IMG/VR virus record: IMGVR_UViG_3300027749_000051
Coordinates: 61,155-125,154 of that record
DNA from: a virus
Length of the DNA stretch: 64,000 nucleotides
Direction: 5' to 3' (one strand)
Positions 13,080 to 63,737 of the stretch are shown in pieces. The notes below the pieces were generated by a model, which worked only from the letters and a program-made list of their open reading frames with translations, was not told where the DNA came from and ran no database searches. Both the position numbers and the translations under genes were made by a program. Position 1 is the first letter of the stretch, and every line of letters begins with the position of its first letter.

Positions 13080-13173
13080 GATCGGATGGCGGAATTGGTA
13101 GACGCTATACGTAGATAACAACCGATATTTTAGAGGGCGTGTTATTATACAGGTTCGAACCCTGTTCCGATCA
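13080..13173 (+). ncRNA. tRNA-like RNA 1 (Leu-type D arm, canonical T arm, 26-nt anticodon-position loop)
   Basis: Acceptor GATCGGA/TCCGATC+A; D arm GCG-GAATTGGTAGA-CGC; T arm ACAGG-TTCGAAC-CCTGT; stem ATACG/CGTGT closes a 26-nt loop; no encoded CCA. Confidence 0.75.
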
Positions 13174-13191
13174 CTTTAAAATAGTATTAAT

Positions 13192-13292
13192 AGTTAGGTG
13201 GCGGAATTGGTTAGACGCTGACCACAATAAGATAGGTTTACAATATGGTCTTAAAGTTACTTATCATACAGGTTCGAATCCTGTCCTGACTA
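13192..13292 (+). ncRNA. tRNA-like RNA 2 (Leu-type D arm, canonical T arm, 21-nt anticodon-position loop, long variable region)
   Basis: Acceptor AGTTAGG/CCTGACT+A; D arm GCG-GAATTGGTTAGA-CGC; stem GACCA/TGGTC closes a 21-nt loop; T arm ACAGG-TTCGAAT-CCTGT. Confidence 0.75.
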
Positions 13293-13865: not shown

Positions 13866-13878
13866 TATTATTATATTG

Positions 13879-15126
13879 ATGAAGACTAAAAAACCAAGTG
13901 CTATCGTTTACGGATGGGATAGAGAAGGTGAAGAGATTTTAGTGTCTGATGTTTATTTTGAAGAGTCATTATTTGATGATGTTATTGTTTATTCTTTACC
14001 ATACCGAGATACGGTTGTTGAGGATTATTCTAAGTATCAACCAGATTTGATAATTTCAATAAACAAAGATATTAATATTCCTCACTACCAACTTGGGAGA
14101 TTACATATTCATCTTGATAACCTTGATGGTGATAATGTCTTGGCGAATATTATTGTTTGTCAATCTGTCTTTAGAAATTGTGAAGTAATTAGGTCCAGGT
14201 TCTCTATTTTCACTCCAGTTTATAAAACAGGTGAACGTATTCGCCGAACTTATGATGGTCTTAAAAATCAGATATGGACCAACTGGGAGTGGGTTATTGT
14301 TGATGATTCTCCTGATGAAGAAACTTGGGAAATCTTAAAAGAAATCTCAGATAAAGATTATCGGGTTAAATTAAATCGAGTCTATCCATTAACGGGCGGC
14401 AATGTTGGATTAGCGAAACATAGGGCGGCAATGTTATGTGATGGTGATTGGTTAGTGGAATTGGATCATGATGATTATCTAACTTCTGAATGTCTTTCAA
14501 CATGTAATGATGCGATTGAGAAGTTTCCTGATGGGAAGTTCTTATATACAAATTGTTCAGAAATATATGATGATGGGGAACCAAAATATTATGACCATGA
14601 CTGGTCTGGTAATTGGTATGGTAGACATGATAACTATTTTGATTTTGGTTATGCCGGACATGAGTGGGTTAATGTTGATGGGGAAAATATATTGGGACAT
14701 TTTTATCCTGATGTTAACCCATTAACAATCCGATTTAATATCAGTATGCCTAATCATGCTAGAATGTGGGAAAGGAATTTCTACCATGAAATTGGTGGAC
14801 ATAACAAAAAAACTCCTGTTGCTGATGATCTGGAAATTATTGTTCGAAGTTTTTTAAAAACACGGATGATTCATGTGAAAAAAGTGTTATATTTTCAATA
14901 TAACAATAGGAATAGTACTGTTGATAATAACGCGAATGATATAAACCGAAGAGCCAGATTAATTAGGGATTATTATGATGTCGCAATTCACAATCGAATT
15001 ACTGAACTTGGATTTCATGACTGGAATTGGATTGAAGAAGAAGGACATTCACAAAAGTTTCAAAACAAAGCTCCCATCAGAAAGTATTTTGATGAAGAAG
15101 AAGTAATGAATTACATTTATGAGTAA
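13879..15126 (+). CDS. Glycosyltransferase family 2
   Basis: FSIFTPVYKT...WEWVIVDDSPD...WLVELDHDD...ADDLE. Confidence 0.9.
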   Translation: MKTKKPSAIVYGWDREGEEILVSDVYFEESLFDDVIVYSLPYRDTVVEDYSKYQPDLIISINKDINIPHYQLGRLHIHLDNLDGDNVLANIIVCQSVFRNCEVIRSRFSIFTPVYKTGERIRRTYDGLKNQIWTNWEWVIVDDSPDEETWEILKEISDKDYRVKLNRVYPLTGGNVGLAKHRAAMLCDGDWLVELDHDDYLTSECLSTCNDAIEKFPDGKFLYTNCSEIYDDGEPKYYDHDWSGNWYGRHDNYFDFGYAGHEWVNVDGENILGHFYPDVNPLTIRFNISMPNHARMWERNFYHEIGGHNKKTPVADDLEIIVRSFLKTRMIHVKKVLYFQYNNRNSTVDNNANDINRRARLIRDYYDVAIHNRITELGFHDWNWIEEEGHSQKFQNKAPIRKYFDEEEVMNYIYE

Positions 15127-16294
15127 AAAAACAAAAATTTGTTTGAATGCGATGGTTGGTAATGAAGCGCCGACCATCATGAGAATGCTGGAGTCTGTGG
15201 CTTCATATATTGACTATTGGGTGATCCAATGTAATGGTAAGGAAGACAATACCAAAGAAATAATTGAGAACTTTTTCCAAGAAAAAGGAATTCCTGGTTT
15301 TACATATGTAATTGATTGGAATTTTCCAGGTTGGAATAGAGATCATACATTACAAACTTGTTTGAGTGCAGATCATGGATGTGATTGGATATTGAGAATG
15401 GATGCCGATGAAACTTTGGCAGTTGATAATGATTTTGATTGGAGTATCTTGGATGATATTTCAGTTGACAGTTATAATATCACCGCTCAGGCTGGTCAAA
15501 CTAAATATTTTAGAACATGGTTTTGGAATGCAAAAAGACCGTGGTTCTTTCAACACGATAAACGACATGAAACAATTCATTTACCAGAAATTGGTGAGGA
15601 TTTCCAAAGATTCGACATGCCATACGGGTTTAGACATATGGTCTCACAGGATGGTCAGACATGGTATGTTCCAAGAAAATTCTTGAGAGATGCATTAGAG
15701 TTGGAGATTGATAAAGTTGTTGGAAATAAAGTGTTAGAGGATCATTATCATCTTTGGTATTTGGCGAAAAGTTATTCTGATTCATATGGTAATCCTGATG
15801 AGTTACCATTTGGTAAAGATCATTCTGACGAATATGCAAGAAGATCTATTTGGTATTATGAGATGTTTCTAAAGAAATCTCATAAGTGGGATGGTAGTGG
15901 TGTTCCAGAACGACAAGATGAAATGGCATACTATGCTTTGATTATGATGGGTATTGCTCATGGATTTATAGGTAATTTAGATAAGTCTTATAAATGTTTC
16001 AGAGACGCCGAGTTATTCTGTTCAGGACGAAACGAACATTTACTTTATCTTGCTTTGGAATTAGAAAAACAAAAAAAATATATTGATATTCTTCCAATTA
16101 TTGAGGAGATGTGTAATCCTGAAAAAGTTAATCCATTTCCAAATAGAACATTCTTAATCGAAGATAGAGCTTATATGAATACAAGTAATTTCTTGAATGA
16201 ATATAAAGAAAAAATTGAAAATGGGTGTAAAGAAAAAACTGAGATAACATCAAAACCATTTATTTTTAAGAGCGTTAAGTTTGACTTTAAATGA
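15119..16294 (+). CDS. Glycosyltransferase family 2 with TPR-like C-terminus
   Basis: ICLNAMVGNE...RMDADE (DxD)...HETI; helical Tyr/Ala-rich tail. Confidence 0.85.
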   Translation: MSKKTKICLNAMVGNEAPTIMRMLESVASYIDYWVIQCNGKEDNTKEIIENFFQEKGIPGFTYVIDWNFPGWNRDHTLQTCLSADHGCDWILRMDADETLAVDNDFDWSILDDISVDSYNITAQAGQTKYFRTWFWNAKRPWFFQHDKRHETIHLPEIGEDFQRFDMPYGFRHMVSQDGQTWYVPRKFLRDALELEIDKVVGNKVLEDHYHLWYLAKSYSDSYGNPDELPFGKDHSDEYARRSIWYYEMFLKKSHKWDGSGVPERQDEMAYYALIMMGIAHGFIGNLDKSYKCFRDAELFCSGRNEHLLYLALELEKQKKYIDILPIIEEMCNPEKVNPFPNRTFLIEDRAYMNTSNFLNEYKEKIENGCKEKTEITSKPFIFKSVKFDFK

Positions 16295-17397
16295 TTTTAA
16301 TGAATAAAAATATATATGATTATCTTATCGTTGGCGCTGGAGTTTTTGGTTCGGTTTGTGCCTATGAACTTACCAAAAAAGGGAAAAAATGTTTAGTAAT
16401 TGATAAACGAAAAGTTATAGGGGGAAATTGTTATACTGAAAATATAAATGGTATTCATGTTCACAAATATGGTGCACATATATTTCATACAAACGATAAA
16501 CATTTATGGGATTATGTTAATCAATTTGCAACATTTAAACCTTTTATTAATAGTCCGATTGCGAACTACAAGGGAGAGATTTATGCTCTCCCTTTTAATA
16601 TGTGGACATTTAATAAATTATGGGGTGTTACTACACCTGAGGACGCAAAACAAAAAATAGATAGTCAAAAATACAATGGAGAGGTGACTAATCTTGAAGA
16701 GCAAGCCTTATCAATGGTTGGAAAAGATGTGTATGAGAAACTAATCAAAGGGTATACTGAAAAACAATGGAATAAATCTGCAACAGAACTCCCGCCATCT
16801 ATTATTAAAAGATTGCCAGTTCGATTCACTTGGGACAATAATTATTTCAATGACAAGTATCAGGGAATACCTATTGACGGATATACACAGATATTTGAAA
16901 AGATGCTTGAGAATGTTGATGTAACACTTGGTATTGATTATTTTGAGGATAAAGAATATTTGGATTCTCTTGCTGATAAAGTAATCTATACTGGACCAAT
17001 AGATAAGTTTTTTGATTATAAGTTTGGAAGACTTGAATATAAAAGTTTAAGATGGGAAACACAAGTTTTAGAAACAGATAATTTCCAAGGTAATCCTGTT
17101 GTTAATTATACTGATTCTGAAGTACCATATACCCGAATATTAGAACATAAATGGTTTGACCATCAGAACCAAAAGGGAACTGTTATTAGTTATGAATACC
17201 CAATGGAATATACTAAAGAAACTGAACCGTATTATCCTATAAGGGATGAAAATAATATTGAAATATATGAAAAATATTATTCAGAGGCAAAGAATCTTGA
17301 TAAGTATATTTTTGGAGGAAGATTAGGAACTTATGTTTATTACGATATGCATCAAGTTATTGATCAAGCACTCAATACGATAAAAGATATTAATTGA
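16291..17397 (+). CDS. glf: UDP-galactopyranose mutase
   Basis: YDYLIVGAGVFG, GGNCY, HKYGAHIFHT, YTRILEHKWF, GRLGTYVYYDMHQVI. Confidence 0.97.
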   Translation: MILMNKNIYDYLIVGAGVFGSVCAYELTKKGKKCLVIDKRKVIGGNCYTENINGIHVHKYGAHIFHTNDKHLWDYVNQFATFKPFINSPIANYKGEIYALPFNMWTFNKLWGVTTPEDAKQKIDSQKYNGEVTNLEEQALSMVGKDVYEKLIKGYTEKQWNKSATELPPSIIKRLPVRFTWDNNYFNDKYQGIPIDGYTQIFEKMLENVDVTLGIDYFEDKEYLDSLADKVIYTGPIDKFFDYKFGRLEYKSLRWETQVLETDNFQGNPVVNYTDSEVPYTRILEHKWFDHQNQKGTVISYEYPMEYTKETEPYYPIRDENNIEIYEKYYSEAKNLDKYIFGGRLGTYVYYDMHQVIDQALNTIKDIN

Positions 17398-17411
17398 TAT
17401 ATTTATATCTA

Positions 17412-17813
17412 ATGAAAGTTAGTATAAAGAAAAACGGAGACTGTCTTAAGAATGAGGATATGCCAGTTATTAAAGAATTTGTTAAATTCTTAAAAACACA
17501 ATTATCTTTAACGGATGATGTCCATATTACCCTTGTGGACAAAAGAATATCTCCAATGACTACTGGAGTAAGACTTGGTAAACATCGTATTAATGTGTTA
17601 GCCAAAGATAGAATGTTAATCGATATACTTCGTACTATTGCACATGAATGGGTTCATGAGTATCAACATCAGAAAATGGGATTAAAGGACACTGATAAGA
17701 TACAGGATATTGGAGGACCCGAAGAGAATATGTGTAATATATTATCAGGAATCTTCATTAAAAAGTTTCAAAAGAATAATCCTGAGTTTGAACACCAAAT
17801 CTATCACGAATAA
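17412..17813 (+). CDS. HExxH metallopeptidase-like protein
   Basis: LRTIAHEWVHEYQH...EENMC. Confidence 0.6.
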   Translation: MKVSIKKNGDCLKNEDMPVIKEFVKFLKTQLSLTDDVHITLVDKRISPMTTGVRLGKHRINVLAKDRMLIDILRTIAHEWVHEYQHQKMGLKDTDKIQDIGGPEENMCNILSGIFIKKFQKNNPEFEHQIYHE

Positions 17814-17830
17814 TTTATCATAGGTATTGA

Positions 17831-17860
17831 TTGTCACAATAATGTAATTGTTTTGTAATC
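17831..17860 (+). promoter_or_regulatory. Pho-box-like direct repeats
   Basis: TGTCAC (17832), TGTAAT (17843), TGTAAT (17854) at exact 11-bp spacing, directly upstream of porin-pstS. Confidence 0.65.
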
Positions 17861-17914
17861 GCTTTACATGGATACAAACATCTTTATTGTTAAATAAACA
17901 ATTAAAATTATCTT

Positions 17915-19282
17915 ATGAAAAAACTACAATTATTATTTCTTGCATTGTTTTTTGGTATTGTGTTTAATTTAAGTGCACAAGAACAAACAACAAGTGAAAA
18001 GTTAACCGAACTAAATGACAGGGTTAATGGACTATCTGAAAGGATTGCAACTAACGAATCTGACTTATCTAAATTAACTAAGATTAAGGTTTCAGGTTAC
18101 ATTCAATCTCAGTATCAAAACTTTGAAACTCCCTCCTTACTTTCTAAATCTCAAAACTATTTTTCACTTAGAAGAGTTAGAGTAAAATTTACTTATGAAG
18201 CGCTTGATGGTGTAAAATTTGTTTTACAACCTGATTTTGCTCCGGGTGGTCTTTCCTTAAAAGACGCTTATGTGGTAGTAAATGACCATTGGACTAAATC
18301 GTTTAGTTTATGGGGTGGAAAGTTCAACAGACCAAATTATGAAGTTGAATATTCGTCAAGTCAGAGAGAATTACCTGAGCGTTCATTAGTTATTAGAACA
18401 TTATATCCTGGTGAGCGTGCGATAGGTACAAAATTAGAATTTAATCCTACAACTATACCACTTCATGTTCAGTTTGCCGTTCTAAATGGTAGTGATGGTT
18501 TAACTATTGCAAACAATGCTGGTGTTAATCTTAATGCTACTGACAATATTGACTATGATAATTTCAAAGATATTATGGCTCGTATAACATACAACCTTAG
18601 TCTTGGAAGTTTTGGTGGATTAGATTTCGGTGGACATGGATATTTTGGATCGTTAAAATCAAATTCTACTAGAACATTAAATGGTGACTATTCAACACTA
18701 ACTAATACTAAAATTGGAAATTCAATTGGTAGAAATTGGTTAGGTGGAGAATTTCAATTATTTGCTGATGTGTTAGGTGGTTTATCGGTTAAAGGAGAAT
18801 ATATCGCTGGTAAAAATGCGACTATCGGATATGCTGCGGTTCCTGCCGCAGGTAGTGTTGCAGCAATCCCTGAGGTATCAAATTTCCAAAATAACTTCAA
18901 TGGTGGATATCTTTATTTCATTAAAAACTTAGGTAAGAGAAATCAGATTGCATTTAGATATGATTACTATGACCCTAATACAAATATATCAGGAAAAGAT
19001 GTTACAATAATAGGATTTACAAGTACTGATGCAACCTTGAAATCAAAGTTAAGTGGTAAGGGAGATCTTGCAACAACTACATATGGATTTGCGTTACATC
19101 ATTATTATGATGATAATATTAGAATCACAATTGGGTATGATATTGTTCAAAATGAAAAAGTTGGAACTGTTGGGAAAGTTGTTGATAACTATACCACATC
19201 TACAGGAGCACCAATTAAAGCTGATTGGAGTAATATTATTAACCAGAATGTATTAACAATAAGAATTCAAGCTAAATTTTAA
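17915..19282 (+). CDS. Outer-membrane porin, probably phosphate-selective (OprO/OprP-like)
   Basis: Signal peptide, N-terminal coiled coil, FSLRRVRVKF, LKDAYV, RYDYYDPN, terminal Phe; directly upstream of pstS. Confidence 0.8.
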   Translation: MKKLQLLFLALFFGIVFNLSAQEQTTSEKLTELNDRVNGLSERIATNESDLSKLTKIKVSGYIQSQYQNFETPSLLSKSQNYFSLRRVRVKFTYEALDGVKFVLQPDFAPGGLSLKDAYVVVNDHWTKSFSLWGGKFNRPNYEVEYSSSQRELPERSLVIRTLYPGERAIGTKLEFNPTTIPLHVQFAVLNGSDGLTIANNAGVNLNATDNIDYDNFKDIMARITYNLSLGSFGGLDFGGHGYFGSLKSNSTRTLNGDYSTLTNTKIGNSIGRNWLGGEFQLFADVLGGLSVKGEYIAGKNATIGYAAVPAAGSVAAIPEVSNFQNNFNGGYLYFIKNLGKRNQIAFRYDYYDPNTNISGKDVTIIGFTSTDATLKSKLSGKGDLATTTYGFALHHYYDDNIRITIGYDIVQNEKVGTVGKVVDNYTTSTGAPIKADWSNIINQNVLTIRIQAKF

Positions 19283-19288
19283 GATAAT

Positions 19289-20119
19289 ATGAAAAAATTA
19301 AATATTTTAATTACAGCGGTTGTACTATTCATTAGTTCAATAGCGTTTATCGCGGCACCAGAAAGAATTACTATTAAAGGTTCTGATACTATGGTTATCT
19401 TGGCACAACGATGGGCTGAGGTTTATATGAAATCTAATAGTAACGTGGCTCTTCAAGTTACTGGAGGTGGATCAGGGATTGGTATATCGGCATTGATTAA
19501 TGGATCTACTGATATTGCTAATGCTAGTCGTAAAATGAAACCAACTGAGAAGGATAAACTTAAATCAAGATACAATACTTTAGGTGTTGAAGTTGCTTGT
19601 GCTAAAGATGGCATTACGATTTATCTAAATCCTGCAAATAAAGTTAAAGAATTATCAATCGAACAATTAAGTAAGATTTATAAAGGTGAGATAACCAATT
19701 GGAAAGAAGTTGGTGGAAACAATCAACCTATTAAACTTTATGGTAGAGAAAATAGTTCAGGTACATATGTGTTCTTTCAAGAAAATGTTGTAAAGGGAGA
19801 CTACTCACCAAGTTGTCAGACACTACCAGGTACGTCTGCCGTTGTAAATGCGGTCACAAAAGATGAAAATGGTATTGGATATGGTGGAGCAGCTTACGCT
19901 GAAGGAATCGCTATATGTGGGGTAAAGAAAGACAATAATAGTAAATCATTTAAACCGACATCTGAAACTATTAAGACTGGCGATTACCCTATTACAAGAT
20001 ATTTATTTATGTATCTTCGTAATAGACCTACAGGTGAAACTAAAAAATACATTGATTGGATTTTAGGTACTGAAGGACAAAAGTTAGTTGTTGATTTAGG
20101 GTATTTTCCTGTAAAATAA
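19289..20119 (+). CDS. pstS: Phosphate-binding protein
   Basis: IKGSDTMV, TGGGSGIGI, DIANASR, YGRENSSGT, YPITRYLFMY. Confidence 0.95.
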   Translation: MKKLNILITAVVLFISSIAFIAAPERITIKGSDTMVILAQRWAEVYMKSNSNVALQVTGGGSGIGISALINGSTDIANASRKMKPTEKDKLKSRYNTLGVEVACAKDGITIYLNPANKVKELSIEQLSKIYKGEITNWKEVGGNNQPIKLYGRENSSGTYVFFQENVVKGDYSPSCQTLPGTSAVVNAVTKDENGIGYGGAAYAEGIAICGVKKDNNSKSFKPTSETIKTGDYPITRYLFMYLRNRPTGETKKYIDWILGTEGQKLVVDLGYFPVK

Positions 20120-20135
20120 TACAACATCTATAAAT

Positions 20136-20169
20136 AAAAAAAGGAGGTAATATATTACTTCCTTTTTTT
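20136..20169. terminator. Bidirectional intrinsic terminator
   Basis: A run-GGAGGTAA-TATA-TTACTTCC-T run between convergent genes. Confidence 0.85.
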
Positions 20170-20172
20170 ATG

Positions 20173-20484
20173 CTAACAATTACCGGTTAAAGTGTTAATA
20201 GAAACTACGACACCCATTTCACTGAATATCTTTTGAATGGTGTCATCCATAAACCTATGATAGTCTTTCCTTGAGAAAGTTCCGTCTAATAACATTTTAC
20301 GGTTTAAGTAACATAGAACAATGGTATCATTTCCTGTTTCGTAAGTGTATTGTTGTACATCTACATCACAGATTGCTGGGAAATTAAACGCAGCTAGTTC
20401 AATAACAATTGATTTGATTGAGGAGAGGTTTTCATTACTTTCACAAGTAATTCTTCGTGTTTTTTTGAGTTGTTTTTCGGGCAT
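20173..20484 (-). CDS. Hypothetical protein
   Basis: 103-aa ORF ending at terminator. Confidence 0.6.
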   Translation of the reverse strand: MPEKQLKKTRRITCESNENLSSIKSIVIELAAFNFPAICDVDVQQYTYETGNDTIVLCYLNRKMLLDGTFSRKDYHRFMDDTIQKIFSEMGVVVSINTLTGNC

Positions 20485-20566
20485 GACAAGATGATTTTAT
20501 AAGGATTAATGTAGTACAATATTAATCAAAATAACTAAATTAAACAACATATAATGTTAAAAGAAT

Positions 20567-20746
20567 ATGAACAAAGAAAATAGAATAGATGGAATTTATA
20601 TTCCGATAAAGGTTGGTGATATTATTTATAGTGGAAGATTTAAAAATAAAAAAACAACTGTAAAAACTATTGGTAGTGATGAATATGGAATGCCTACTAT
20701 TAATGGAAAAAGAGTATTAACCTTTCGAATTATAAAGAAAGATTAA
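20567..20746 (+). CDS. 59-aa hypothetical protein
   Basis: Manual: MNKENRIDGIYIPIKVGDIFYSGRFKNKKTTVKTIGSDEYGMPTINGKRVLTFRIIKKD. Not in ORF track. Confidence 0.7.
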   Translation: MNKENRIDGIYIPIKVGDIIYSGRFKNKKTTVKTIGSDEYGMPTINGKRVLTFRIIKKD

Positions 20747-20758
20747 TACTCTTTTTGA

Positions 20759-20971
20759 TTATGGTTGTAACTTTTTTATTATTTCAGTTATTCCATCACT
20801 TCCAAATTTATACCTTTTATAGAGGGCATGTTTGTCTTCCTTGTACCAAACTTCAAATCCTGTGTCATCCATAACAACACTAAGAATTTCGCCTGTGTTT
20901 GATGAGAAAGTTATCGGAGATTCAGACTCTCCGATAACAAAGTTTCCGTATTTGTCTACATCTATTTTCAT
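20759..20971 (-). CDS. Hypothetical protein
   Basis: 70-aa ORF directly downstream of metK. Confidence 0.6.
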   Translation of the reverse strand: MKIDVDKYGNFVIGESESPITFSSNTGEILSVVMDDTGFEVWYKEDKHALYKRYKFGSDGITEIIKKLQP

Positions 20972-20978
20972 TACAGAT

Positions 20979-21962
20979 CTACTTCCAGTTAAAATTGTTT
21001 CCCATATGTCCCCACATTGCAGTTTCAGAGTATATTGGGTTTTTTAGGTCCAAATGTTTGATGATACCCTGTGGTGATAAATCGTATTTGTTTAATCCTA
21101 GTGGTAGTGTTGCGATGTTAAACTCAATACCATCAATTATTGATGTGGATTGTAAAGGTTGGTCATATCCGATTGCGTATGATAATTGGACAAATACTTC
21201 TTTTGCTGATGGATATGCTTTTAATAGATCTACAGCTACTTTACGAGCCATATATGCTGCACTTCTATCTACTTTTGTTGCGTCCTTACCACTAAATGCT
21301 CCTCCGCCAATCGGGATCCTTGGTCCATAGTTATCCACGGCAAGTTTTCTACCAGTAACACCAGCATCGGCGTCAAATCCGCCCATATTCCAATCACCAG
21401 CAGGATTACAATGTAGTGCCTCGATTCTATAACCTTCAGTTGAACAGAAATCTTTACATAAAGTTTCTAATTCTTCTTTTGGTGCGTTTTGGAAAGAACA
21501 CACTACTCTAACACTACGATTTTCTTGGTCTAATGTGATTTGTGTTTTACCATCGTAAGGGTATTGTTCGTATACCACTTTATTCAACTTTCTTGCCAGA
21601 TAATATTCTTGTGGTACTAACTCTTCATTCTCATTACATGCATAACCAATCATAATTCCTTGGTCACCAGCACCACCAACATCAACACCTTGAGCGATCT
21701 CAGGTGATTGTTTTACTAAGTTAATGATAACATCATCAACATTGGCGATTTCTTTAACGATCTCTCTAATTTTTTCATCTGAAATTTTGTATTCAGATGT
21801 TACTTCACCTGTGATGAATACTTTGGAGTGACCTCCACAGGTTTCAACGGCACATCTTGATTGTGGGTCGTTTTTTAAATGGTCATCCAAGATTGCGTCT
21901 GAGATTCTATCACAAAGCTTATCAGGATGTTTCGGGGATACAAATTCTGCTGTTCTAATCAT
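20979..21962 (-). CDS. metK: S-adenosylmethionine synthetase
   Basis: EFVSPKHPDKLCDRISDAILD, GAGDQG, DGKTQ, DAGVTGRKL, GGGAFSGKDATKVDRSAAY. Confidence 0.97.
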   Translation of the reverse strand: MIRTAEFVSPKHPDKLCDRISDAILDDHLKNDPQSRCAVETCGGHSKVFITGEVTSEYKISDEKIREIVKEIANVDDVIINLVKQSPEIAQGVDVGGAGDQGIMIGYACNENEELVPQEYYLARKLNKVVYEQYPYDGKTQITLDQENRSVRVVCSFQNAPKEELETLCKDFCSTEGYRIEALHCNPAGDWNMGGFDADAGVTGRKLAVDNYGPRIPIGGGAFSGKDATKVDRSAAYMARKVAVDLLKAYPSAKEVFVQLSYAIGYDQPLQSTSIIDGIEFNIATLPLGLNKYDLSPQGIIKHLDLKNPIYSETAMWGHMGNNFNWK

Positions 21963-22004
21963 ATCAATTTTATTTTATTTTATGTTCTATTTTTAAGTAT
22001 AATA

Positions 22005-22034
22005 AAAAAGGATGTCAAACTCAAGTTGACATCC
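22005..22034 (-). terminator. Intrinsic terminator after ahcY
   Basis: GGATGTCAA-loop-TTGACATCC followed by T run on minus strand. Confidence 0.75.
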
Positions 22035-22058
22035 TCTTAATATTTGTGTTAATTGTTA

Positions 22059-23468
22059 TTAATATCGATATTCGTCTTTTTTGTAAGGACCATTAACATC
22101 GACTCCAAGATATTCTGACTGATCTGGTGTTAAGGTTGTTAACTTGATTCCTAATTGACCAATATGTAATCTTGCCACTTCTTCATCCAAATGTTTTGGT
22201 AATGTGTGAACACCTACAGGGTAATCATTTGTCGCCAATTCAATTTGAGCTAAGACTTGGTTGGTGAATGAGGTACTCATTACAAAAGATGGGTGACCTG
22301 TTGCACACCCTAAGTTAACTAATCTACCTTCAGCCAATAGATAGATTGAGTGTCCATCTTCGAAAGTATATTTATCAACCTGTGGTTTGATATTTGTTCT
22401 GATAACAGTTTTATCAGAATGTAATTTTTCTACTTGGATCTCATTATCGAAATGTCCGATATTACAAACAATTGCCTCATCCTTCATTTGTGACATGTGT
22501 TCCAATGTAATAACATCTTTATTACCTGTTGTGGTTACATAGATATTACCAACAGATAATGAATCTTCAATTGTCTGTACTTGGAACCCTTCCATTGATG
22601 CTTGTAATGCGCAGATGGGGTCAATCTCAGTTATGATAACTCGTGCTCCATAACTCTTCATAGACTTCGCACATCCTTTGCCAACATCACCATATCCTGC
22701 AATTACAACAACTTTACCAGCGATCATAACATCTGTTGCTCGTTTGATTCCATCAGCAAGTGATTCACGACAACCATATAAGTTATCGAATTTGGATTTG
22801 GTTACAGAGTCATTAACATTAAATGCTGGGAACAATAGTTTATCGTTTTCATACATTTGATATAATCTATGTACACCTGTTGTTGTTTCTTCAGATACTC
22901 CAATAATTCCTTCAACCGCATTTTCCCATCGTTCATTGTTAGATGATAGAATTTCTTTTAGAATATGGTTAAACTCATATTCGTCTTCACCATTGGTTGG
23001 AAGATCTAAGATGTTTGGATCTTTTTCAGCATCATACCCACGATGGATCATTAATGTTGCGTCGCCACCATCATCAACAATTAAGTTTGGCCCTTCACCA
23101 TTAGGAAATTCCAATGCTTTAGCGGTACACCACCAATATTCTTCTAATGTTTCACCTTTCCATGCAAAAACAGGAATACCTGCTTCAGCAATGGCTGCGG
23201 CAGCATGATCTTGTGTTGAGAAAATATTACAACTACACCATCTAACATCTGCTCCAAGTTCTTTTAATGTTTCAATTAACACTGCAGTTTGGATTGTCAT
23301 ATGTAATGACCCAGTAATTTTGTGTCCTGATAAAGGTTTAGTTTTACCATATTTCTCACGAAGAGACATAAGTCCTGGCATTTCTTTTTCTGCAATCTTA
23401 ATTTCTTTTCTTCCGTATTCTGCAAGATTAATATCTGCTACGGCATAGTCTGTAAATTCCATATTCAT
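22059..23468 (-). CDS. ahcY: S-adenosylhomocysteine hydrolase
   Basis: [68 protein letters not shown]. Confidence 0.98.
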
Positions 23469-24172: not shown

Positions 24173-24703
24173 CTATGTTTTAGATTTATGATTTAATATT
24201 TCTTCAACCTTATAATCTTCCCAACTGCCAGCATCTATAGTTTTTTCTACCTTATGATTAAGGACATCTTCTATATCAGTTTCAGGAAAATTAAATACAA
24301 CCACAGGTTTTTCTATTTTATAATCGAGGACATTATCTATGTTACGGTTATCTCTGCCTTGGAAAGATAAAGTTTTTTCTACCTTATGATTGAGGACATC
24401 TTCTACTTCCGATTCATCTATAATATTTCTATGTCGAGGTGTATCTACTTTATAATTAAGGATATCTTCTACAAAAGAGGATAGGATAGGTTCAAACTCA
24501 TTTCGTTCCATTGAAAATATGGTAAAAAAATCAGAGAAAAACCACCATCTCCAATACAAGATTCCTCGTTTTTTATATTCTAAATACCAATACTTATTTT
24601 CTCTGTCAATAATCCATATGGAGTCTTCATATGGAATTATCTCAGTATGTTTCAGATCATTATATAGTTTATCAAATATTATTTTCTTTAATCTGGGGTT
24701 CAT
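24173..24703 (-). CDS. Array-fused family protein, copy A (W/F-rich domain + 5 in-frame repeats)
   Basis: WIIDRENKYWY...LYWRWWFFSDFF domain followed by 22-aa-periodic VEDxLNxKV. Confidence 0.85.
   Translation of the reverse strand: MNPRLKKIIFDKLYNDLKHTEIIPYEDSIWIIDRENKYWYLEYKKRGILYWRWWFFSDFFTIFSMERNEFEPILSSFVEDILNYKVDTPRHRNIIDESEVEDVLNHKVEKTLSFQGRDNRNIDNVLDYKIEKPVVVFNFPETDIEDVLNHKVEKTIDAGSWEDYKVEEILNHKSKT
24174..24473 (-). CRISPR. CRISPR-like mini-array A inside CDS (5 degenerate 36-nt repeats, 4 spacers of 30 nt)
   Basis: Repeats at 24438-24473, 24372-24407, 24306-24341, 24240-24275, 24174-24209; exact 66-nt period. Confidence 0.55.
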
Positions 24704-24704
24704 T

Positions 24705-25254
24705 TTAATTAAGTATATTATCTACTTTAACAGGCCATGGGCAATAATCTGCTTTTGCTGTATTTACCTTATGATTCAGTACATCGTCCAATATTTTGTA
24801 GTTCTCAACCAATGATTTCATAGATGTTTCTCCATTATGGTTAAGTACATCTGCCGTCGGGTTTACGAATCCGCAATAACCGATCTTAGTTGCATCTACC
24901 TTATGATTAAGGATGTCTTCCTCTTTAGTGTAACCTGTTGTGTTTCGCCAAGTAGATATTGTTACTTTAGGGTTAAGGATGTCTTTCACCACTGGTGTTT
25001 GCGAATCGTTTGTAAAAAAGGATTTACTTACCTTATGATTAAGGATGTTTTCCACCTTAAGATGAGTAAGAAAATCTATACCATTAGATGTACTTACCTT
25101 ATGATTAAGGATGACTTCCACCGATGCGATGGCTGGACCAACACCAGTATCGGATGTGTTTACCTTATAATTAAGGATGTCTTCCACCAATGCAGAGAAA
25201 GCATTTGAAAGAAGAACAGATGTGCCTACCTTATGATTAAGGATGTCTTCCACC
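24705..25254 (-). CRISPR. CRISPR-like mini-array B inside CDS (8 repeats + partial, 8 spacers of 30 nt)
   Basis: Repeats start (+ strand) at 25219, 25153, 25087, 25021, 24955, 24889, 24823, 24757; first is GGTGGAAGACATCCTTAATCATAAGGTAGGCACATC in gene sense; degeneracy rises distally. Confidence 0.7.
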
Positions 25255-25484
25255 ATAGAAGTTAGAAATGGTTTATACTCATTTTGTTCCAATGAGAATA
25301 GTTGGAAAAAATTATTGAAAAACTCCCATCTCCACCATAATGTTCCTGATTTTTCAAATTCAAAATACCAGTACTTTTCTTTTCTATCAATAAACCATAT
25401 CGCATTATTATATGGGATTATCTCCACATGTTTCAGATCGTTATATAGTTTATCTAATATAATTTTTTTTAATCTCTCGTTCAT
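24705..25484 (-). CDS. Array-fused family protein, copy B (8 full + 1 partial repeats)
   Basis: Same N-terminal domain; 22-aa periodic tail to the stop codon. Confidence 0.85.
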   Translation of the reverse strand: MNERLKKIILDKLYNDLKHVEIIPYNNAIWFIDRKEKYWYFEFEKSGTLWWRWEFFNNFFQLFSLEQNEYKPFLTSMVEDILNHKVGTSVLLSNAFSALVEDILNYKVNTSDTGVGPAIASVEVILNHKVSTSNGIDFLTHLKVENILNHKVSKSFFTNDSQTPVVKDILNPKVTISTWRNTTGYTKEEDILNHKVDATKIGYCGFVNPTADVLNHNGETSMKSLVENYKILDDVLNHKVNTAKADYCPWPVKVDNILN

Positions 25485-25487
25485 AGT

Positions 25488-25955
25488 TTATATTTTATTT
25501 ACCTTACGATTTAAGATTCTTTCTACCAATCCTTCAGGTGGAACTTCATCAAAGAATGTTGTTTTTACCTTACGATTTAAGATGTCTTCCACCCAGCCTT
25601 TGGCTTTACCTATGAAATTATTTGATGTATCTACCTTACGATTTAAGATGTCTTCCACCGGGTCGATCGATTGATATTCCCCATTGAAAGATGTATCTAC
25701 CTTACGATTTAAGATGTCTTCCACCATATCTCGTATAAGTGGCTCATACTCATCTCGTTCCAATGAAAACAGGTAGAAAAAATTATTGAAAAACTCCCAT
25801 CTCCACCACAGAGTTCCATTTTTATTCAATTTAAAGTACCAGTATTTTTCATTTGGATCTATTGCCCATATATTGCCATCATCGACAATAATTTCGGAGC
25901 CCTTCATATCGTTCAAAAGTTTATCAAATATTATTTTCTTTATCCTGTCGTTCAT
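25488..25955 (-). CDS. Array-fused family protein, copy C (4 repeats)
   Basis: WAIDPNEKYWYF...GTLWWRWEFFNNFF; VEDILNRKV x3 plus VERILNRKV. Confidence 0.85.
   Translation of the reverse strand: MNDRIKKIIFDKLLNDMKGSEIIVDDGNIWAIDPNEKYWYFKLNKNGTLWWRWEFFNNFFYLFSLERDEYEPLIRDMVEDILNRKVDTSFNGEYQSIDPVEDILNRKVDTSNNFIGKAKGWVEDILNRKVKTTFFDEVPPEGLVERILNRKVNKI
25492..25725 (-). CRISPR. CRISPR-like mini-array C inside CDS (4 repeats, 3 spacers of 30 nt)
   Basis: GGTGGAAGACATCTTAAATCGTAAGGTAGATACATC identical at 25690-25725 and 25624-25659; variants at 25558-25593 and 25492-25527. Confidence 0.75.
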
Positions 25956-28143: not shown

Positions 28144-28407
28144 TTATGAGATAACTTTAACTGGCAACTTATATCCTTTTTTGAACCAAGCGGATATAAC
28201 AATAAGGATTACATTATCAATGTAACCTTTTCCAAACTTCTTATTCAACTCGGACCTAACTATATCACTACAATACATTGTTGAGGTCTTAATATCAAAT
28301 AAGAAATACTCGTTATGCCAGGTCTGCTCAACCTTATCATAGTAAAGGTATGGGAACCCAAATTTATCATCTATGAATTTAACTATGTGTTTTTCTATTG
28401 TTGTCAT
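28144..28407 (-). CDS. Hypothetical protein
   Basis: 87-aa ORF ending at hairpin 28118-28140. Confidence 0.6.
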   Translation of the reverse strand: MTTIEKHIVKFIDDKFGFPYLYYDKVEQTWHNEYFLFDIKTSTMYCSDIVRSELNKKFGKGYIDNVILIVISAWFKKGYKLPVKVIS

Positions 28408-28434: not shown

Positions 28435-28956
28435 ATGAACTTACAAGAAAACATACACAGGATTAAGGAAATGATGGGGATTAATGAAAAGCATGATCTC
28501 CTGAATAAACCTATCAAAGATATTATAGACCAAGTGGGAGGATATGGAACAGGATTCAACACCGATGAAGACGCCATAGAAGAAATAGAATATGTGGTAT
28601 CAAGTGATTTTCCTGAAGGTCTGAATAACATTCCAACTAAAGTAATCTTATATAGAGTTATATTATTGGAAGATGGTAAATCCATTAACGAGGATCAGGT
28701 TGGGGAACATTTCATTTCGGATACAAGACATATAGATAGATCGTTCTTGGAAAAGATAGATATATGGGACAATTGGGATGCGGACAATTCCAAGTTATGG
28801 TTACTACAATGTGAAACGGATGGGGATAATATAGATATAGAAAGAACATTAGGTAATAGAGTTCAATATCCTCGTGAGAATGAATTCACCCTGAAGAACG
28901 ATAAAAAGATTAGGTTGATAAAGAAAAAGATACTTAATAAAGAACAGCTTAGATGA
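28435..28956 (+). CDS. Putative ADP-ribosyltransferase-fold protein with MxLQENIxRIK leader
   Basis: LYRV...HFISD...RENEF resembles the R-S-E triad; start moved to ATG 28435 after TATTTAT. Confidence 0.45.
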   Translation: MNLQENIHRIKEMMGINEKHDLLNKPIKDIIDQVGGYGTGFNTDEDAIEEIEYVVSSDFPEGLNNIPTKVILYRVILLEDGKSINEDQVGEHFISDTRHIDRSFLEKIDIWDNWDADNSKLWLLQCETDGDNIDIERTLGNRVQYPRENEFTLKNDKKIRLIKKKILNKEQLR

Positions 28957-29483
28957 AATACATAATTACTGAGAGACAATATAGAGTGATATCCGAAGAA
29001 GTTAATCCTCGCATCAAAGAAATTATCTTCAATAAGTTATTGAATGATATGAAGGGTGTTGAGATTATTGAAGATAATGGTAGCATATGGGCAATAGATC
29101 CTGATGAGAAATACTGGTACTTTGAGTTGCAAGAAAACGGAACTTTATGGTGGAGATGGGGATTTTTCAATAATTTTTTCAAGTTATTTTCAATAGAAAG
29201 AAATGAGTTTGAACCACTTATGCGTGAACTGGTGGAAGACATCTTGAATCGCAAGGTAGTCACATCACTTCTAGTGCAATTCCTTGGTGACCTAATGGTG
29301 GAAGACATCTTGAATCGCAAGGTAGTCACATCCCACAGCGGACAGATTCACGTCCAAAGCCAGGTGGAAGACATCTTGAATCGCAAGGTAGTCACATCTA
29401 GTGGGCATGACCAAAGATTAACAATGTCAATAAAAGACATATTAAATCGTAGGAATAAGATAACCAAAGATGAGAACTTTTAA
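28953..29483 (+). CDS. Array-fused family protein, copy D (MKYIITE leader)
   Basis: Leader + W/F-rich domain + VEDILNRKVVTS x3. Confidence 0.9.
   Translation: MKYIITERQYRVISEEVNPRIKEIIFNKLLNDMKGVEIIEDNGSIWAIDPDEKYWYFELQENGTLWWRWGFFNNFFKLFSIERNEFEPLMRELVEDILNRKVVTSLLVQFLGDLMVEDILNRKVVTSHSGQIHVQSQVEDILNRKVVTSSGHDQRLTMSIKDILNRRNKITKDENF
29231..29464 (+). CRISPR. CRISPR-like mini-array D inside CDS (3 identical 36-nt repeats + degenerate terminal repeat, 3 spacers of 30 nt)
   Basis: GGTGGAAGACATCTTGAATCGCAAGGTAGTCACATC at 29231, 29297, 29363; degenerate copy at 29429. Confidence 0.8.
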
Positions 29484-29486
29484 GAT

Positions 29487-29804
29487 ATGAAACTACAAGA
29501 GAACATAGACAGAATTAAACAAGTGATGGGAGTTATCAATGAAGATAAACCATCAATCCATATTTTACGGAGATTACCTCAAATAGAGAGGGCATTAAAT
29601 CAGACATTATATTATTTATCTCCTTGTGAATATGATGATGTGGAATATTATACTGAACATGTATTACACCAACTTAGGGAATATTTTGAAGATTATGAAG
29701 AAGAAGAAGAGGTTGAACCTTTTGCGGCAACAAATTATGTTGCAGAATATTTATCATCTGAAATAGAAGAATATTACGATGACCGTAAAACAGAATGTGA
29801 ATAA
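29487..29804 (+). CDS. Acidic hypothetical protein with MKLQENIDRIKQVMG leader
   Basis: Leader identical to 29869 and 30581. Confidence 0.75.
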   Translation: MKLQENIDRIKQVMGVINEDKPSIHILRRLPQIERALNQTLYYLSPCEYDDVEYYTEHVLHQLREYFEDYEEEEEVEPFAATNYVAEYLSSEIEEYYDDRKTECE

Positions 29805-40761: not shown

Positions 40762-41142
40762 ATGAAATACATAATTACCGAAAATCAATATAGACTGATT
40801 AATGAAGAGGTTAGCCCTCGCCTGAAAGATTTTATTTTTAATAAGTTATTGGAAGATATGAAGGGAGCCGAACTTATTGAAGATAAATTTAGCACCATAT
40901 GGGCAATTGATCCTGACGAGAAGTACTGGTACTTTGTATTGCTAAAAGATGGTACTTTATGGTGGAGACCGGACTTTTTCCATAATTTCTTTAGGTTGTT
41001 TTCATTGGGACAAAAAGAATTTGAGCCACTTATACGAGATATGGTGGGAGACATCTTAAATCGCAAGGTAGGTAAATCAGGCGCTTTTGAATCCTTGCAT
41101 CCTCTTCAGGTGGGAGACATCTTAAATCGCAATAAGAAATGA
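40762..41142 (+). CDS. Array-fused family protein, copy E (leader, 2 repeats)
   Basis: MKYIITENQY leader, W/F-rich domain, VGDILNRK x2. Confidence 0.88.
   Translation: MKYIITENQYRLINEEVSPRLKDFIFNKLLEDMKGAELIEDKFSTIWAIDPDEKYWYFVLLKDGTLWWRPDFFHNFFRLFSLGQKEFEPLIRDMVGDILNRKVGKSGAFESLHPLQVGDILNRNKK
41043..41132 (+). CRISPR. CRISPR-like repeat-spacer-partial repeat E inside CDS
   Basis: GGTGGGAGACATCTTAAATCGCAAGGTAGGTAAATC (41043-41078), 30-nt spacer, 24-nt identical truncated repeat (41109-41132). Confidence 0.6.
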
Positions 41143-44051: not shown

Positions 44052-44915
44052 ATGAAATACATTATAACCAAAGACCAATATAGATTGATTAATGAAGAGG
44101 TTAATCCAAGATTGAAGGAGATTATCTTCAAGAAGCTATTAAATGATCTGAAGGATGTTGAAATTATTGAAGATCCTGAAAATGGAGATATATGGGCCAT
44201 TGATCCTGAAAAAAAATATTGGTATTTTCAATTGAAAAAAAGCGGACTTTTATGGTGGAGATGGGATTTTTTCAATAATTTTTTCAGGGTGTTTTCAATG
44301 GAACAAAAACAATATGAACCACTTATAAGATCTATGGTGGAAGACCTATTAAATCGTAAGGTAGTCACATCTGTTAAGACAGGTGCTAAAGAGGTTGAGG
44401 TGGTGGAAGACCTATTAAATCGTAAGGTAGGCACATCTGATGGACGTAATTCTGTTCTTAAGGCTAAGGTGGAAGACCTATTAAATCGTAAGGTAGGCAC
44501 ATCCTATTTTAAATGGTCCAATAATGATGATCTGGTGGAAGACCTATTAAATCGTAAGGTAGGATCATCACTTAAAGAAGATTTGGCGGTATGGTTTGGA
44601 ACAAAGAAAAAACCAAAAGGTAGCAAACAACCTGCAGGACCTTGGGTTAATATATGTCGTAAAGATAAAGACGGAAAACATCCTCCTTGTGGTAGATCTG
44701 AAGCAAGTGATAAGGGATATCCAAAATGTCGTGCGGCTGGTGTTGCAGGTAAGATGAGCGACTCAGAAAAAAAATCGGCTTGTCAACAAAAAAGAAAAGC
44801 AGAAAAATCACATTCTAAATCAGGAACTGGAAACAAACCTAAGATGACTCATTATGAACCAAAAAATGAGCAATTACATCCTATTATTAGAAGATCAATA
44901 AGAGAATCTCTTTAA
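44052..44915 (+). CDS. Array-fused family protein, copy F, with extra Cys/Lys-rich C-terminal domain
   Basis: Leader + domain + VEDLLNRKV x4, then WFG...GPWVNIC...HPPCGR...YPKCR domain. Confidence 0.88.
   Translation: MKYIITKDQYRLINEEVNPRLKEIIFKKLLNDLKDVEIIEDPENGDIWAIDPEKKYWYFQLKKSGLLWWRWDFFNNFFRVFSMEQKQYEPLIRSMVEDLLNRKVVTSVKTGAKEVEVVEDLLNRKVGTSDGRNSVLKAKVEDLLNRKVGTSYFKWSNNDDLVEDLLNRKVGSSLKEDLAVWFGTKKKPKGSKQPAGPWVNICRKDKDGKHPPCGRSEASDKGYPKCRAAGVAGKMSDSEKKSACQQKRKAEKSHSKSGTGNKPKMTHYEPKNEQLHPIIRRSIRESL
44336..44569 (+). CRISPR. CRISPR-like mini-array F inside CDS (4 repeats, 3 spacers of 30 nt)
   Basis: GGTGGAAGACCTATTAAATCGTAAGGTAG(T/G)CACATC at 44336, 44402, 44468; variant ending GGATCATC at 44534. 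Confidence 0.8.
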
Positions 44916-52984: not shown

Positions 52985-53629
52985 ATGAAATCAATTCAAA
53001 TAACCGAATCACAACTTAATAATCTTGTTAAGGAAATCTTATCAGAAGATGTTAATCCAAAACTTGCAAAGATCGCAATGGGTAAGCTCTATGATGACAT
53101 TAAAGATGCCGAGGTTATTCCATATAGAAGTTCCGTTTGGATTATTGATAGAAAGAATAAGTATTGGTATATCGAATATAGAGATGGTGGAGCAATGTAT
53201 TGGAGACGGGATTTCTTCCAAGATTTTTTCAATATGTTCTCAATGAAGGATAAGGATTTTGAGCCTCTTTTAGTCACCATGATGGAAGATATTTTAAATA
53301 ATTATAAAGACATTTTAAAAAATATTGAGAAACCAGAATATACATCAGTAGAAGATGACCTCCGAAAAAATAATGGGGACACATTTATTTCACCCACATC
53401 TTTAGGGTATAACACAGGTTATGAAGATATCCCCAATCAGAAGGTAAAATCATCAGATCCATCATATAATAGAGAAACTCATACGGTGGGGAGCATTCTG
53501 AAAAATAATACAACCTCACCAAAAACAGATGTGGAAGATGTTCTAAAACATAAAGTAAAAACCCCAATGCCAGGATTTTTATCCTCAACTAATCCTTTGG
53601 ATAAAGTCCTAAAATCAACAGAACAATGA
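52985..53629 (+). CDS. Array-fused family protein, copy G (decayed repeats)
   Basis: Domain WIIDRKNKYWY...YWRRDFFQDFF; repeat relics at 53281, 53347, 53419, 53485, 53530, 53596 (spacing 66, 72, 66, 45, 66). Confidence 0.8.
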   Translation: MKSIQITESQLNNLVKEILSEDVNPKLAKIAMGKLYDDIKDAEVIPYRSSVWIIDRKNKYWYIEYRDGGAMYWRRDFFQDFFNMFSMKDKDFEPLLVTMMEDILNNYKDILKNIEKPEYTSVEDDLRKNNGDTFISPTSLGYNTGYEDIPNQKVKSSDPSYNRETHTVGSILKNNTTSPKTDVEDVLKHKVKTPMPGFLSSTNPLDKVLKSTEQ

Positions 53630-54252: not shown

Positions 54253-54608
54253 AATACATTATAACCAAAGGACAACTACATAAAATTGCTTATCAACTAT
54301 TGGATGATCAGTTAAAGAATAATGGTGGATTTGAAGAAAACGAAGATTATGGTAATCATCGTTTTTCATTAGAAGATAAGAATGGAGATAGAATAATATC
54401 GGCAATCCATTATTCTGAAGAAAATGGAAGAGGAGAGACTCATGCATTTATTGGATGGAGGCTTATTCACACGATGTCTAAATTATTTTCAATTCGTCCA
54501 ACAAAAGCCGTTGATATTATTGGAGATTGGTTAAGTGAAACATTAAATCTTGAGATAGATGAGATTGATTTTGACAACACACATAAACCAGATAGTGACG
54601 ATTATTAA
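54249..54608 (+). CDS. Hypothetical protein with MKYIIT leader
   Basis: 119-aa ORF. Confidence 0.75.
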   Translation: MKYIITKGQLHKIAYQLLDDQLKNNGGFEENEDYGNHRFSLEDKNGDRIISAIHYSEENGRGETHAFIGWRLIHTMSKLFSIRPTKAVDIIGDWLSETLNLEIDEIDFDNTHKPDSDDY

Positions 54609-54988
54609 TGAAATACATTATAACTGAAAAACAACACCATCAGATTAGCGATAGAATAATTGATATTGCAATGGATAAACTTTATGATGATCTTAAAGTC
54701 GTAAAAATTATCCCATATCGCGGAGATGTCTGGTTTATTGACCCGAATACAAAAGAATGGTATTTTAAATATGGGCAAGATGAGGATGGAAGAAATGGAG
54801 TCTTAACCTATAGAGCAGACATTTTTGAAAACTTTTTCAGGATATTCTCAATGATGTTATCAGATTATGAACCCCTCTTAATTGATTTGGTTTTTAATGT
54901 GGTTGAAGAACCAATAGTGGATGTCCAAATTAGTAGATCAAACAAATCCCAAGAAGTTAATGATGTTCTTGACTCAATTAAGAAATAA
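54608..54988 (+). CDS. Array-fused family protein, copy H (domain only, no clear repeats)
   Basis: KLYDDLK...IIPY...WFIDPNTKEWYF...FENFFRIFSM...YEPLL. Confidence 0.75.
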   Translation: MKYIITEKQHHQISDRIIDIAMDKLYDDLKVVKIIPYRGDVWFIDPNTKEWYFKYGQDEDGRNGVLTYRADIFENFFRIFSMMLSDYEPLLIDLVFNVVEEPIVDVQISRSNKSQEVNDVLDSIKK

Positions 54989-63387: not shown

Positions 63388-63460
63388 GGTTGGGTAGCTC
63401 AGAGAGTAGAGCAATGTCTTAAAGAAACATGTGCCAGGGGTGCAATTCCTCTCCCAACCA
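63388..63460 (+). tRNA. Atypical tRNA-Phe-like gene with AAA anticodon
   Basis: GGTTGGG/CCCAACC+A; GCTC-AGAGAGTA-GAGC; ATGTC-TTAAAGA-AACAT (C.A mismatch); variable loop GTGCC; AGGGG-TGCAATT-CCTCT; 73 nt, no encoded CCA. Confidence 0.75.
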
Positions 63461-63737
63461 CGTATATGAGGTAAGGTTTTTTAATGGTGGTTGTTCGTGA
63501 TACCTACAAAATTTTTTGTCCTCTTTAAAAAAATAAAAAATCTAACATAAAATCACGGAGGATTAAAGAGAGTGGTGACTTATCTCAAACCCGCCTTAAG
63601 GGTTAAAATAACCTAACCGTTTTGACGTTATCGGTGAACTATAAAAAAAACGAAGTACGGGGACAAATACCTGTACTTATGGGAAATGGTAATGTATTCC
63701 AGTCAAACAAGTTTACTTTCGTAAATTGTTAAAGTAT

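Follow-up and report, generated by a model that had tools for sequence, protein, structure and literature searches.

Phage genes carrying in-frame arrays of type VI-B-like repeats and unique 30-nt spacers

Introduction

Among the described systems, those closest to the locus reported here are the type VI-B CRISPR arrays of Bacteroidota. In Flavobacterium columnare, a VI-B array that has no adaptation genes of its own is filled in trans by the Cas1-Cas2 proteins of a type II-C system, and the arrays of both systems have 36-bp repeats (PMC8092290). Compact arrays that have no adaptation genes also occur in huge phages, and some of them hold spacers directed against the host chromosome; these arrays are non-coding loci that lack Cas1, Cas2 and Cas4, often together with effectors (Al-Shayeb et al., 2020; PMC7162821). 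RNA anti-CRISPRs (Racrs, or solitary repeat units) of phages and plasmids form a third class: each is a single small RNA, encoded between genes and driven by a promoter, in which the structure of the CRISPR repeat it resembles is preserved (PMC10651486). The Racr survey masked open reading frames and found no mimics for type VI.

The arrays described in this work belong to a large, uncultured phage from a lake, represented by an IMG/VR record of 125 kb (~42% complete, 32–33% GC), of which we analyzed one stretch of 64 kb, hereafter the window. Like VI-B arrays of Bacteroidota, they combine 36-nt repeats with 30-nt spacers, and among spacers of other lengths 29 nt is the most frequent. The strand is the same, the termini are similar and a GGTA box lies three bases from the 3′ end of the repeat; further common traits are apparent growth at one end, a degenerate distal repeat and no adaptation genes beside the array. 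They depart from VI-B systems in several respects. The phage repeat has G in place of T as its second base, conserves neither the core nor the U-rich loop and does not covary; each array is embedded in a phage gene whose frame is kept open, and no match to cas13b was obtained in the phage. With the arrays of huge phages they have in common the large phage, the short arrays, the lack of adaptation genes and at least one spacer from a bacterial chromosome, but here every array is read as part of a gene family with several copies, in a frame from which stop codons are kept out. Like Racrs, they are phage-borne sequences that resemble a host CRISPR repeat; in contrast to Racrs, they are arrayed, intragenic and structurally weak, which places them outside that class.

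Results

A phage gene family with arrays behind a conserved domain

The window contains eight paralogous genes (A–H), each encoding a conserved N-domain of ~80 residues. Behind this domain, genes A–F consist of units of exactly 66 nt, composed of a 36-nt repeat and a 30-nt unique insert and thus of 22 codons, 12 for constant and 10 for variable residues. Unit-to-unit spacing in arrays A–F is exactly 66 nt without exception. Three of the genes lie on the minus strand. Gene A (24173–24703, 176 aa) has five decayed units after the N-domain and gene B (24705–25484, 259 aa) has nine, whose repeats match the first copy less well the farther they lie from it (identities of 36, 33, 33, 32, 28, 30, 25, and 25). 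The third is gene C, described below. On the plus strand, gene D (28953–29483, 176 aa) carries identical repeats at 29231, 29297, and 29363 and a degenerate fourth one, and gene E (40762–41142, 126 aa) has the N-domain and two units. In gene F (44052–44915, 287 aa) the N-domain is followed by four units (44336, 44402, 44468, and 44534) and an unrelated Lys/Cys-rich tail. Gene G (52985–53629, 214 aa) retains decayed, irregular repeat remnants behind its N-domain, while gene H (54608–54988, 126 aa) has a divergent N-domain and no clear array. The Lys/Cys-rich tail of gene F (44600–44915) matches PHROG 23735 (E 1e-8), a protein that stands alone in other phages.

In gene C (25488–25955, minus strand, 155 aa), the N-domain (~25726–25955) is followed by an in-frame array of four repeats that forms the 3′ half of the gene. 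Repeat 1 (25690–25725) adjoins the N-domain and also encodes its C-terminal helix; repeat 2 (25624–25659) is identical to it. Repeat 3 (25558–25593) differs from both copies at 3 of 36 positions, and the terminal repeat 4 (25492–25527) is degenerate, with 28/36 identity to repeat 1 and a stop codon directly after it. Three spacers of exactly 30 nt (25660–25689, 25594–25623, and 25528–25557), all read on the minus strand, are interleaved with repeats 2 and 3 over 25528–25689. The 36/30 geometry given in a preliminary description of this DNA is thereby confirmed, and the repeat it had quoted is the minus-strand (gene-sense) sequence of 25558–25593, copy 3 of array C.

No family was found in Pfam or PHROGs for the six genes tested. 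The gene family is common in viral metagenome contigs, some of them 140–310 kb long, and in-frame arrays are present in many jumbo-phage contigs without cas genes. In an AlphaFold2 model of the gene C product, the N-domain (residues 1–85) is predicted with a pLDDT of ~90 and most of the tail (residues 86–121) is disordered; the first repeat encodes the last helix of the confidently modeled domain. Searches with the predicted fold gave no match in the PDB (Foldseek), a best Z of 4.0 in VIA wide and no lead in the ESM Atlas. As modeled, the N-domain thus appears to be an orphan fold, and it always occupies the leader position of the array.

The repeat is a DNA-level block inside a translated sequence

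Comparison of units from the same gene showed identity of 0.62–1.00 at positions 1–36, wobble positions included, a fall to 0.23 at position 37 and values of ~0.28 on to position 66. The profile therefore defines a block of exactly 36 nt that starts one base before the codon frame. Of 47 well-formed repeats, 41 begin with G, though this base is the wobble position of a variable codon and G occupies 22% of third positions in the N-domains. The G at the start of the block is not explained by protein selection.

At the same time, the arrays are constrained by translation. In the gene frame, none of 50 spacers contains a stop codon, while in each of the other five frames 18–33 of the 50 do. Changes of the repeat between genes and between lineages are mostly synonymous (pS 0.60, pN 0.30, pN/pS 0.49), and its Leu and Val codons are exchanged among synonyms between lineages. 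Between lineages the repeat evolves as coding sequence, so that the peptide may account in part for the constancy of its ends. Both the translation of the repeats and the protein-level selection had been underplayed in the preliminary description. As in CRISPR arrays in general, the direct repeats are identical and the spacers unique and constant in length; a CRISPR locus, however, is non-coding and has a leader, whereas these arrays extend an open reading frame, with a protein domain in the leader position.

These data bear on the possibility that the genes encode an ordinary 22-residue tandem-repeat protein, changed by unequal recombination between paralogs or alleles, and that the likeness to VI-B repeats is due to chance. 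The constantly open frame, the peptide motif kept through synonymous changes between lineages and the use of the first repeat as a helix of the folded N-domain all agree with such a protein, and so do a core similarity to VI-B repeats that is near background and the lack of a match to Rfam CRISPR families (see below). Yet the conserved block is offset from the codons, with the wobble G inside it, and repeats of the same gene are identical even at synonymous sites while the inserts between them are unrelated. The spacers, as shown further below, add to this strain.

Likeness to true type VI-B repeats

For comparison with bacterial arrays we used a search signature derived from the ends of the phage repeat (a GGTA box, 3 free positions, ACAAC, 30 free positions, G-[G/T]-TG, 20 free positions, and the same 3′ end). 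A scan of one genome per prokaryote species returned at least 120 stretches, nearly all of them from Bacteroidota, including Segatella buccae ATCC 33574, Bergeyella zoohelcum ATCC 43767, and F. columnare ATCC 23463. A Cas13b protein (NCBIfam NF038190) adjoins the array in five of the seven bacterial loci tested. Two bacterial MAG contigs (L094, L123) have single GGTG-type signature matches, which may be mis-binned phage DNA or genuine bacterial arrays. The reference set of true repeats comprised 105 distinct sequences. Since the reference repeats were picked with a pattern taken from the phage repeat itself, the repeat ends are not usable a second time as evidence.

Two bacterial repeats had been cited in the preliminary description. 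That of B. zoohelcum proved exact (ATCC 43767, L097), and array D matches it at 22 of 36 positions without gaps. That of Segatella (Prevotella) buccae was slightly wrong at the 15th and 16th bases from its end, and its last 14 nt are indeed those of 25558–25593 (ATCC 33574, L046). This 14-mer is present in 9 of the 105 true repeats. The match falls partly in positions 29–31, which vary freely among true repeats, and it sits in an older, diverged copy, three positions off the first repeat of array C.

When compared with all 105 true repeats, the phage repeats reached best identities of 24–28/36, with means of ~20/36 in sense and ~16/36 in antisense orientation, and matches of the covariance model fell on the gene strand only. 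The gene sense is thus the crRNA sense, which settles an orientation that had earlier been called uncertain. When the 36-mers of the whole 125-kb record were scored with a position matrix of the 105 repeats, the phage repeats came out on top, 25558–25593 first among them (19.8 bits; genome mean −75, sd 15). Most of this score comes from the 13 positions fixed by the pattern; on the 23 unselected positions, 25558–25593 lies ~2.6 sd above the mean. At these free positions, two true repeats agree at 12.9 sites on average, a translated-type and a true repeat at 8.3, and a random phage 36-mer and a true repeat at 6.3 (sd 1.35). The covariance model (R1, 105 repeats) found its best match in the window at 25558–25593, with 15.5 bits and an E value of 1.1, and Rfam CRISPR families gave no match to the phage repeats at either gathering or lax thresholds.

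Repeat 25558–25593 carries seven of the eight bases of the GTTG/CAAC ends, which in VI-B repeats pair to a closing stem of 4 bp, the exception being base 2 (G, not T). Other copies in the window end in CATC, by which a G-U pair is restored. Starts with GGTG occur in 7 of 112 distinct bacterial repeats. A stop codon would interrupt 81 of the 105 true VI-B repeats if they were read in the gene frame of the array. In one relative, the second repeat of an array (L012/L014:5297–5332) starts with GTTGGAA, like a true VI-B repeat, and is read as Leu-Glu-Ser.

What the phage repeat has in common with VI-B repeats is its length of 36 nt, its 30-nt spacers, its strand, similar termini on both sides and the GGTA box close to the 3′ end; the core is weakly similar and the model reaches an E value of ~1, so the repeat is VI-B-like and not a member of the VI-B family. 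At the level of sequence comparison, we take the resemblance to be real in size, spacing, strand, termini and GGTA box and weak in the core. The proposal that the repeats derive from or mimic a VI-B repeat agrees with the first group of traits, and it finds no backing in the core, the U-rich loop or the significance of the model.

Folding and covariation of the repeats

As RNAalifold returned no consensus for the true repeats, their structure was set by hand, then checked for covariation and used in the covariance model. True repeats form a closing stem, an inner stem of 5 bp and a loop of six bases, with folding energies of −7 to −11 kcal/mol; 88.5% of the cells are paired and none of 500 shuffles reached the observed covariation. 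The repeat of array D has the same architecture (−9.2 kcal/mol, z −2.45) and so has that of array F. Copies 1 and 2 of array C adopt this fold weakly (−3.9 kcal/mol), while the best fold of 25558–25593 is a different structure (−3.1 kcal/mol, z −0.87), and this copy, like most phage copies, folds no better than shuffled sequences. The bulged hairpin of the preliminary description can therefore be recognized in array D and not in the copy it was meant to describe. Similarly, the inner stems of arrays C and D do differ, as had been noted, but in a set of 32 distinct phage repeats both pairing and covariation were no higher than in shuffled controls. The U-rich loop of the true repeats (a U-run at positions 18–20) was not kept in the phage repeats.

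The folding data bear on the idea that the arrays act at the level of RNA, with repeat hairpins on the mRNA soaking up host Cas13b or yielding guides against transcripts of the host or of rivals, a role with which translation may coexist. The repeats are in crRNA sense on the mRNA and those of arrays D and F fold like true ones. Spacer 1 of array D is antisense to a bacterial gene (see below) and would, if used as a guide, base-pair with the mRNA of that gene. Cas-inhibiting repeat mimics are, moreover, known for other types, and the survey that reported none for type VI masked coding regions (PMC10651486). Against this idea stand the lack of covariation in the 32 phage repeats, when true repeats covary clearly, the folds of most copies, 25558–25593 included, the missing U-rich loop and the E value of 1.1 in the covariance model; the antisense orientation concerns one spacer only, and no spacer of array C matches another phage, with chance-level matches only for arrays A–C. 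Because the structure is not conserved and no array C spacer matches another phage, we consider a Cas13b decoy or guide role possible but do not favor it, and an RNA mimic as the explanation of the arrays seems unlikely.

Origin of the spacers and history of the arrays

Spacers of the phage are unrelated to each other, with no repeated inserts and no self-matches elsewhere in the phage. Their GC content (38.5%) is above that of the phage (32.6%) and close to that of a bacterial contig (37.5%) from which one of them can be traced. Spacer 1 of array D (29267–29296, plus strand) is an exact 30-mer of the metagenome contig Ga0209829_10005340 (L138:3871–3900), where it lies in the last 22 codons of a gene for a protein with a 5′-nucleotidase C-terminal domain; the phage strand is antisense to this gene. 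Identity ends at the repeat borders, save for one shared 5′ base, and no repeats flank the site in the contig. Neighboring genes encode a metallophosphoesterase, a polysaccharide deacetylase and a TonB-dependent receptor with a CarboxypepD_reg domain, a context that looks Bacteroidota-like. From its sequence, we regard spacer 1 of array D as a captured piece of a bacterial chromosome; it is the one spacer of this phage that was traced to a source.

In array C, spacers 1 and 2 had no exact match in viral contigs and spacer 3 none in metagenome contigs, and arrays A–C (24173–25955) gave chance-level matches only against phage and plasmid records (E 0.5). Nothing in these searches points to guides against competitor phages, a use that had been suggested for the repeats. 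A search of the spacers against 401 Flavobacteriales genomes found none, in a weak test that scored few candidates per genome, and no spacers against the phage were found within 120 bacterial array loci.

Spacer lengths resemble those of true arrays. In translated-type arrays, 139 of 143 spacers are 30 nt long and three are 29 nt; the corresponding numbers for bacterial VI-B spacers are 678 and 86 of 795. A translated-type array with two consecutive 29-nt spacers (L210:9698–9830) has a stop codon in the frame of the family and looks broken by its off-size inserts.

The arrays are also polar. In orthologous arrays of related viral contigs, distal spacers are shared and the N-domain end differs, and repeats decay towards the distal end. 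Some of the differences between related arrays are internal, and these are explained by recombination as well as by integration.

Taken with the block described above, the spacers leave a tandem-repeat protein distinctly improbable as an explanation: one insert is an exact bacterial 30-mer whose identity ends at the repeat borders, the spacers have a GC content unlike that of the phage, the rare spacers of another length measure 29 nt, as they do in true arrays, and duplication would repeat inserts, of which none were seen.

A signature scan of viral contigs separated two classes of arrays, namely non-coding arrays with true GTTG repeats and GGTG arrays that are open in the frame of the family. 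One VI-B-like GTTG repeat recurs in non-coding arrays of many IMG/VR contigs (44.5 bits on the matrix, stops in all frames; loci L149, L158, L160, L167, L172, L182, L185, L187–L189, L200, L208, L220, and L224); phage or prophage records therefore also carry ordinary VI-B-like arrays. Further in-frame GGTG arrays were seen on one 640-kb viral contig (L193, L196, L213, and L176) and at L155, L156, L204, and L218. They encode a clearly different peptide between the same DNA ends, and the ends seem better conserved than the core.

Other features of the window

At least eight plus-strand ORFs, several of them otherwise unrelated, open with nearly the same nine residues (MKYIITE.Q; starts at 28953, 40762, 41139, 41421, 44052, 53626, 54249, and 54608). 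A second common opening, M.LQENI.RIK..MG, is found at 29487 and inside the ORF at 28315. ARAGORN called a tRNA-Phe with anticodon AAA at 63388–63461. With Rfam, a 101-nt tRNA-like element was detected at 13192–13292 (35 bits) that ARAGORN did not call; it adjoins a 29-nt direct repeat that resembles a T-arm (region 13142–13292). A block of auxiliary genes (13876–23468) encodes two family-2 glycosyltransferases, a UDP-galactopyranose mutase (16291–17397), a porin-like protein (17915–19282), and, on the minus strand, an S-adenosylhomocysteine hydrolase (22059–23468).

Discussion

On balance, we think it probable that the phage gene contains an in-frame CRISPR-type array that has grown by the uptake of 30-bp pieces of foreign DNA, with Cas1-Cas2 of the host as the integrase. 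The arrays would grow mainly at the N-domain end, each step taking up 30 bp of foreign bacterial DNA, and selection would then retain only those inserts that leave the frame open. The core of the repeat is coding sequence and not a VI-B hairpin, and its ends and its length would form a landing site for host Cas1-Cas2, an integrase of the type by which VI-B arrays are filled in trans. These two VI-B-like traits speak for the integrase, and the weakness of the hairpin speaks against tight binding of Cas13b. The data show the geometry of the arrays, their 36-nt block, the constraint from translation, their polarity and one bacterial fragment that was taken up; the identity of the integrating enzyme and the purpose of the variable tail are what we infer.

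Several observations bear on the choice of host enzymes. Neither a reverse transcriptase nor Cas1 was detected in the phage record (~42% complete), and Cas1 was not detected in four relatives, one of which is complete at 309 kb. A search for Cas13b (NF038190) gave no match in the phage record or the four relatives and likewise none in 14 control genomes, so that its absence is not established. Since no such machinery was detected in the phages, since the VI-B array of F. columnare offers a precedent for filling in trans (PMC8092290) and since huge phages carry arrays without adaptation genes (PMC7162821), we regard host Cas1-Cas2 acting in trans as the likeliest source of array growth. In F. 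jejuense, we found repeats of the usual size, ~47 nt.

A more specific version of this proposal, which we offer tentatively and rate at somewhat short of even, is that Cas1-Cas2 of a Bacteroidota host writes 30-bp pieces of host DNA into the phage genes at VI-B-like repeats, each piece adding a cassette of 10 residues, and that the transcript may in addition present Cas13b-like repeats to the effector of the host.

Growth of the CRISPR type might also be driven by an unrecognized enzyme of the phage itself, in which case the likeness to VI-B repeats would be convergent or ancestral. The occurrence of the arrays in many jumbo-phage contigs without cas genes and the orphan-fold N-domain that always takes the leader position would suit such an enzyme, but no integrase-like candidate was identified in the record (~42% complete), and the distribution of spacer lengths mirrors that of bacterial VI-B arrays. 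We judge a phage-encoded enzyme to have little likelihood. Two other candidates were considered. A diversity-generating retroelement is unlikely, as no reverse transcriptase was found in the record at its ~42% completeness, and a multi-core peptide precursor (RiPP-like) was dropped in view of the 36-nt block in the DNA and the bacterial 30-mer.

Arrays of this kind would escape any survey in which coding regions are masked, as in the Racr survey, or 'protein repeats' are discarded. If integration by host Cas1-Cas2 is the correct reading, the genome of the phage would be a substrate for the adaptation machinery of its host. A CRISPR-type array would then double as coding sequence and captured DNA would be turned into protein sequence, a route of protein diversification for which we found no precedent in the literature searched.
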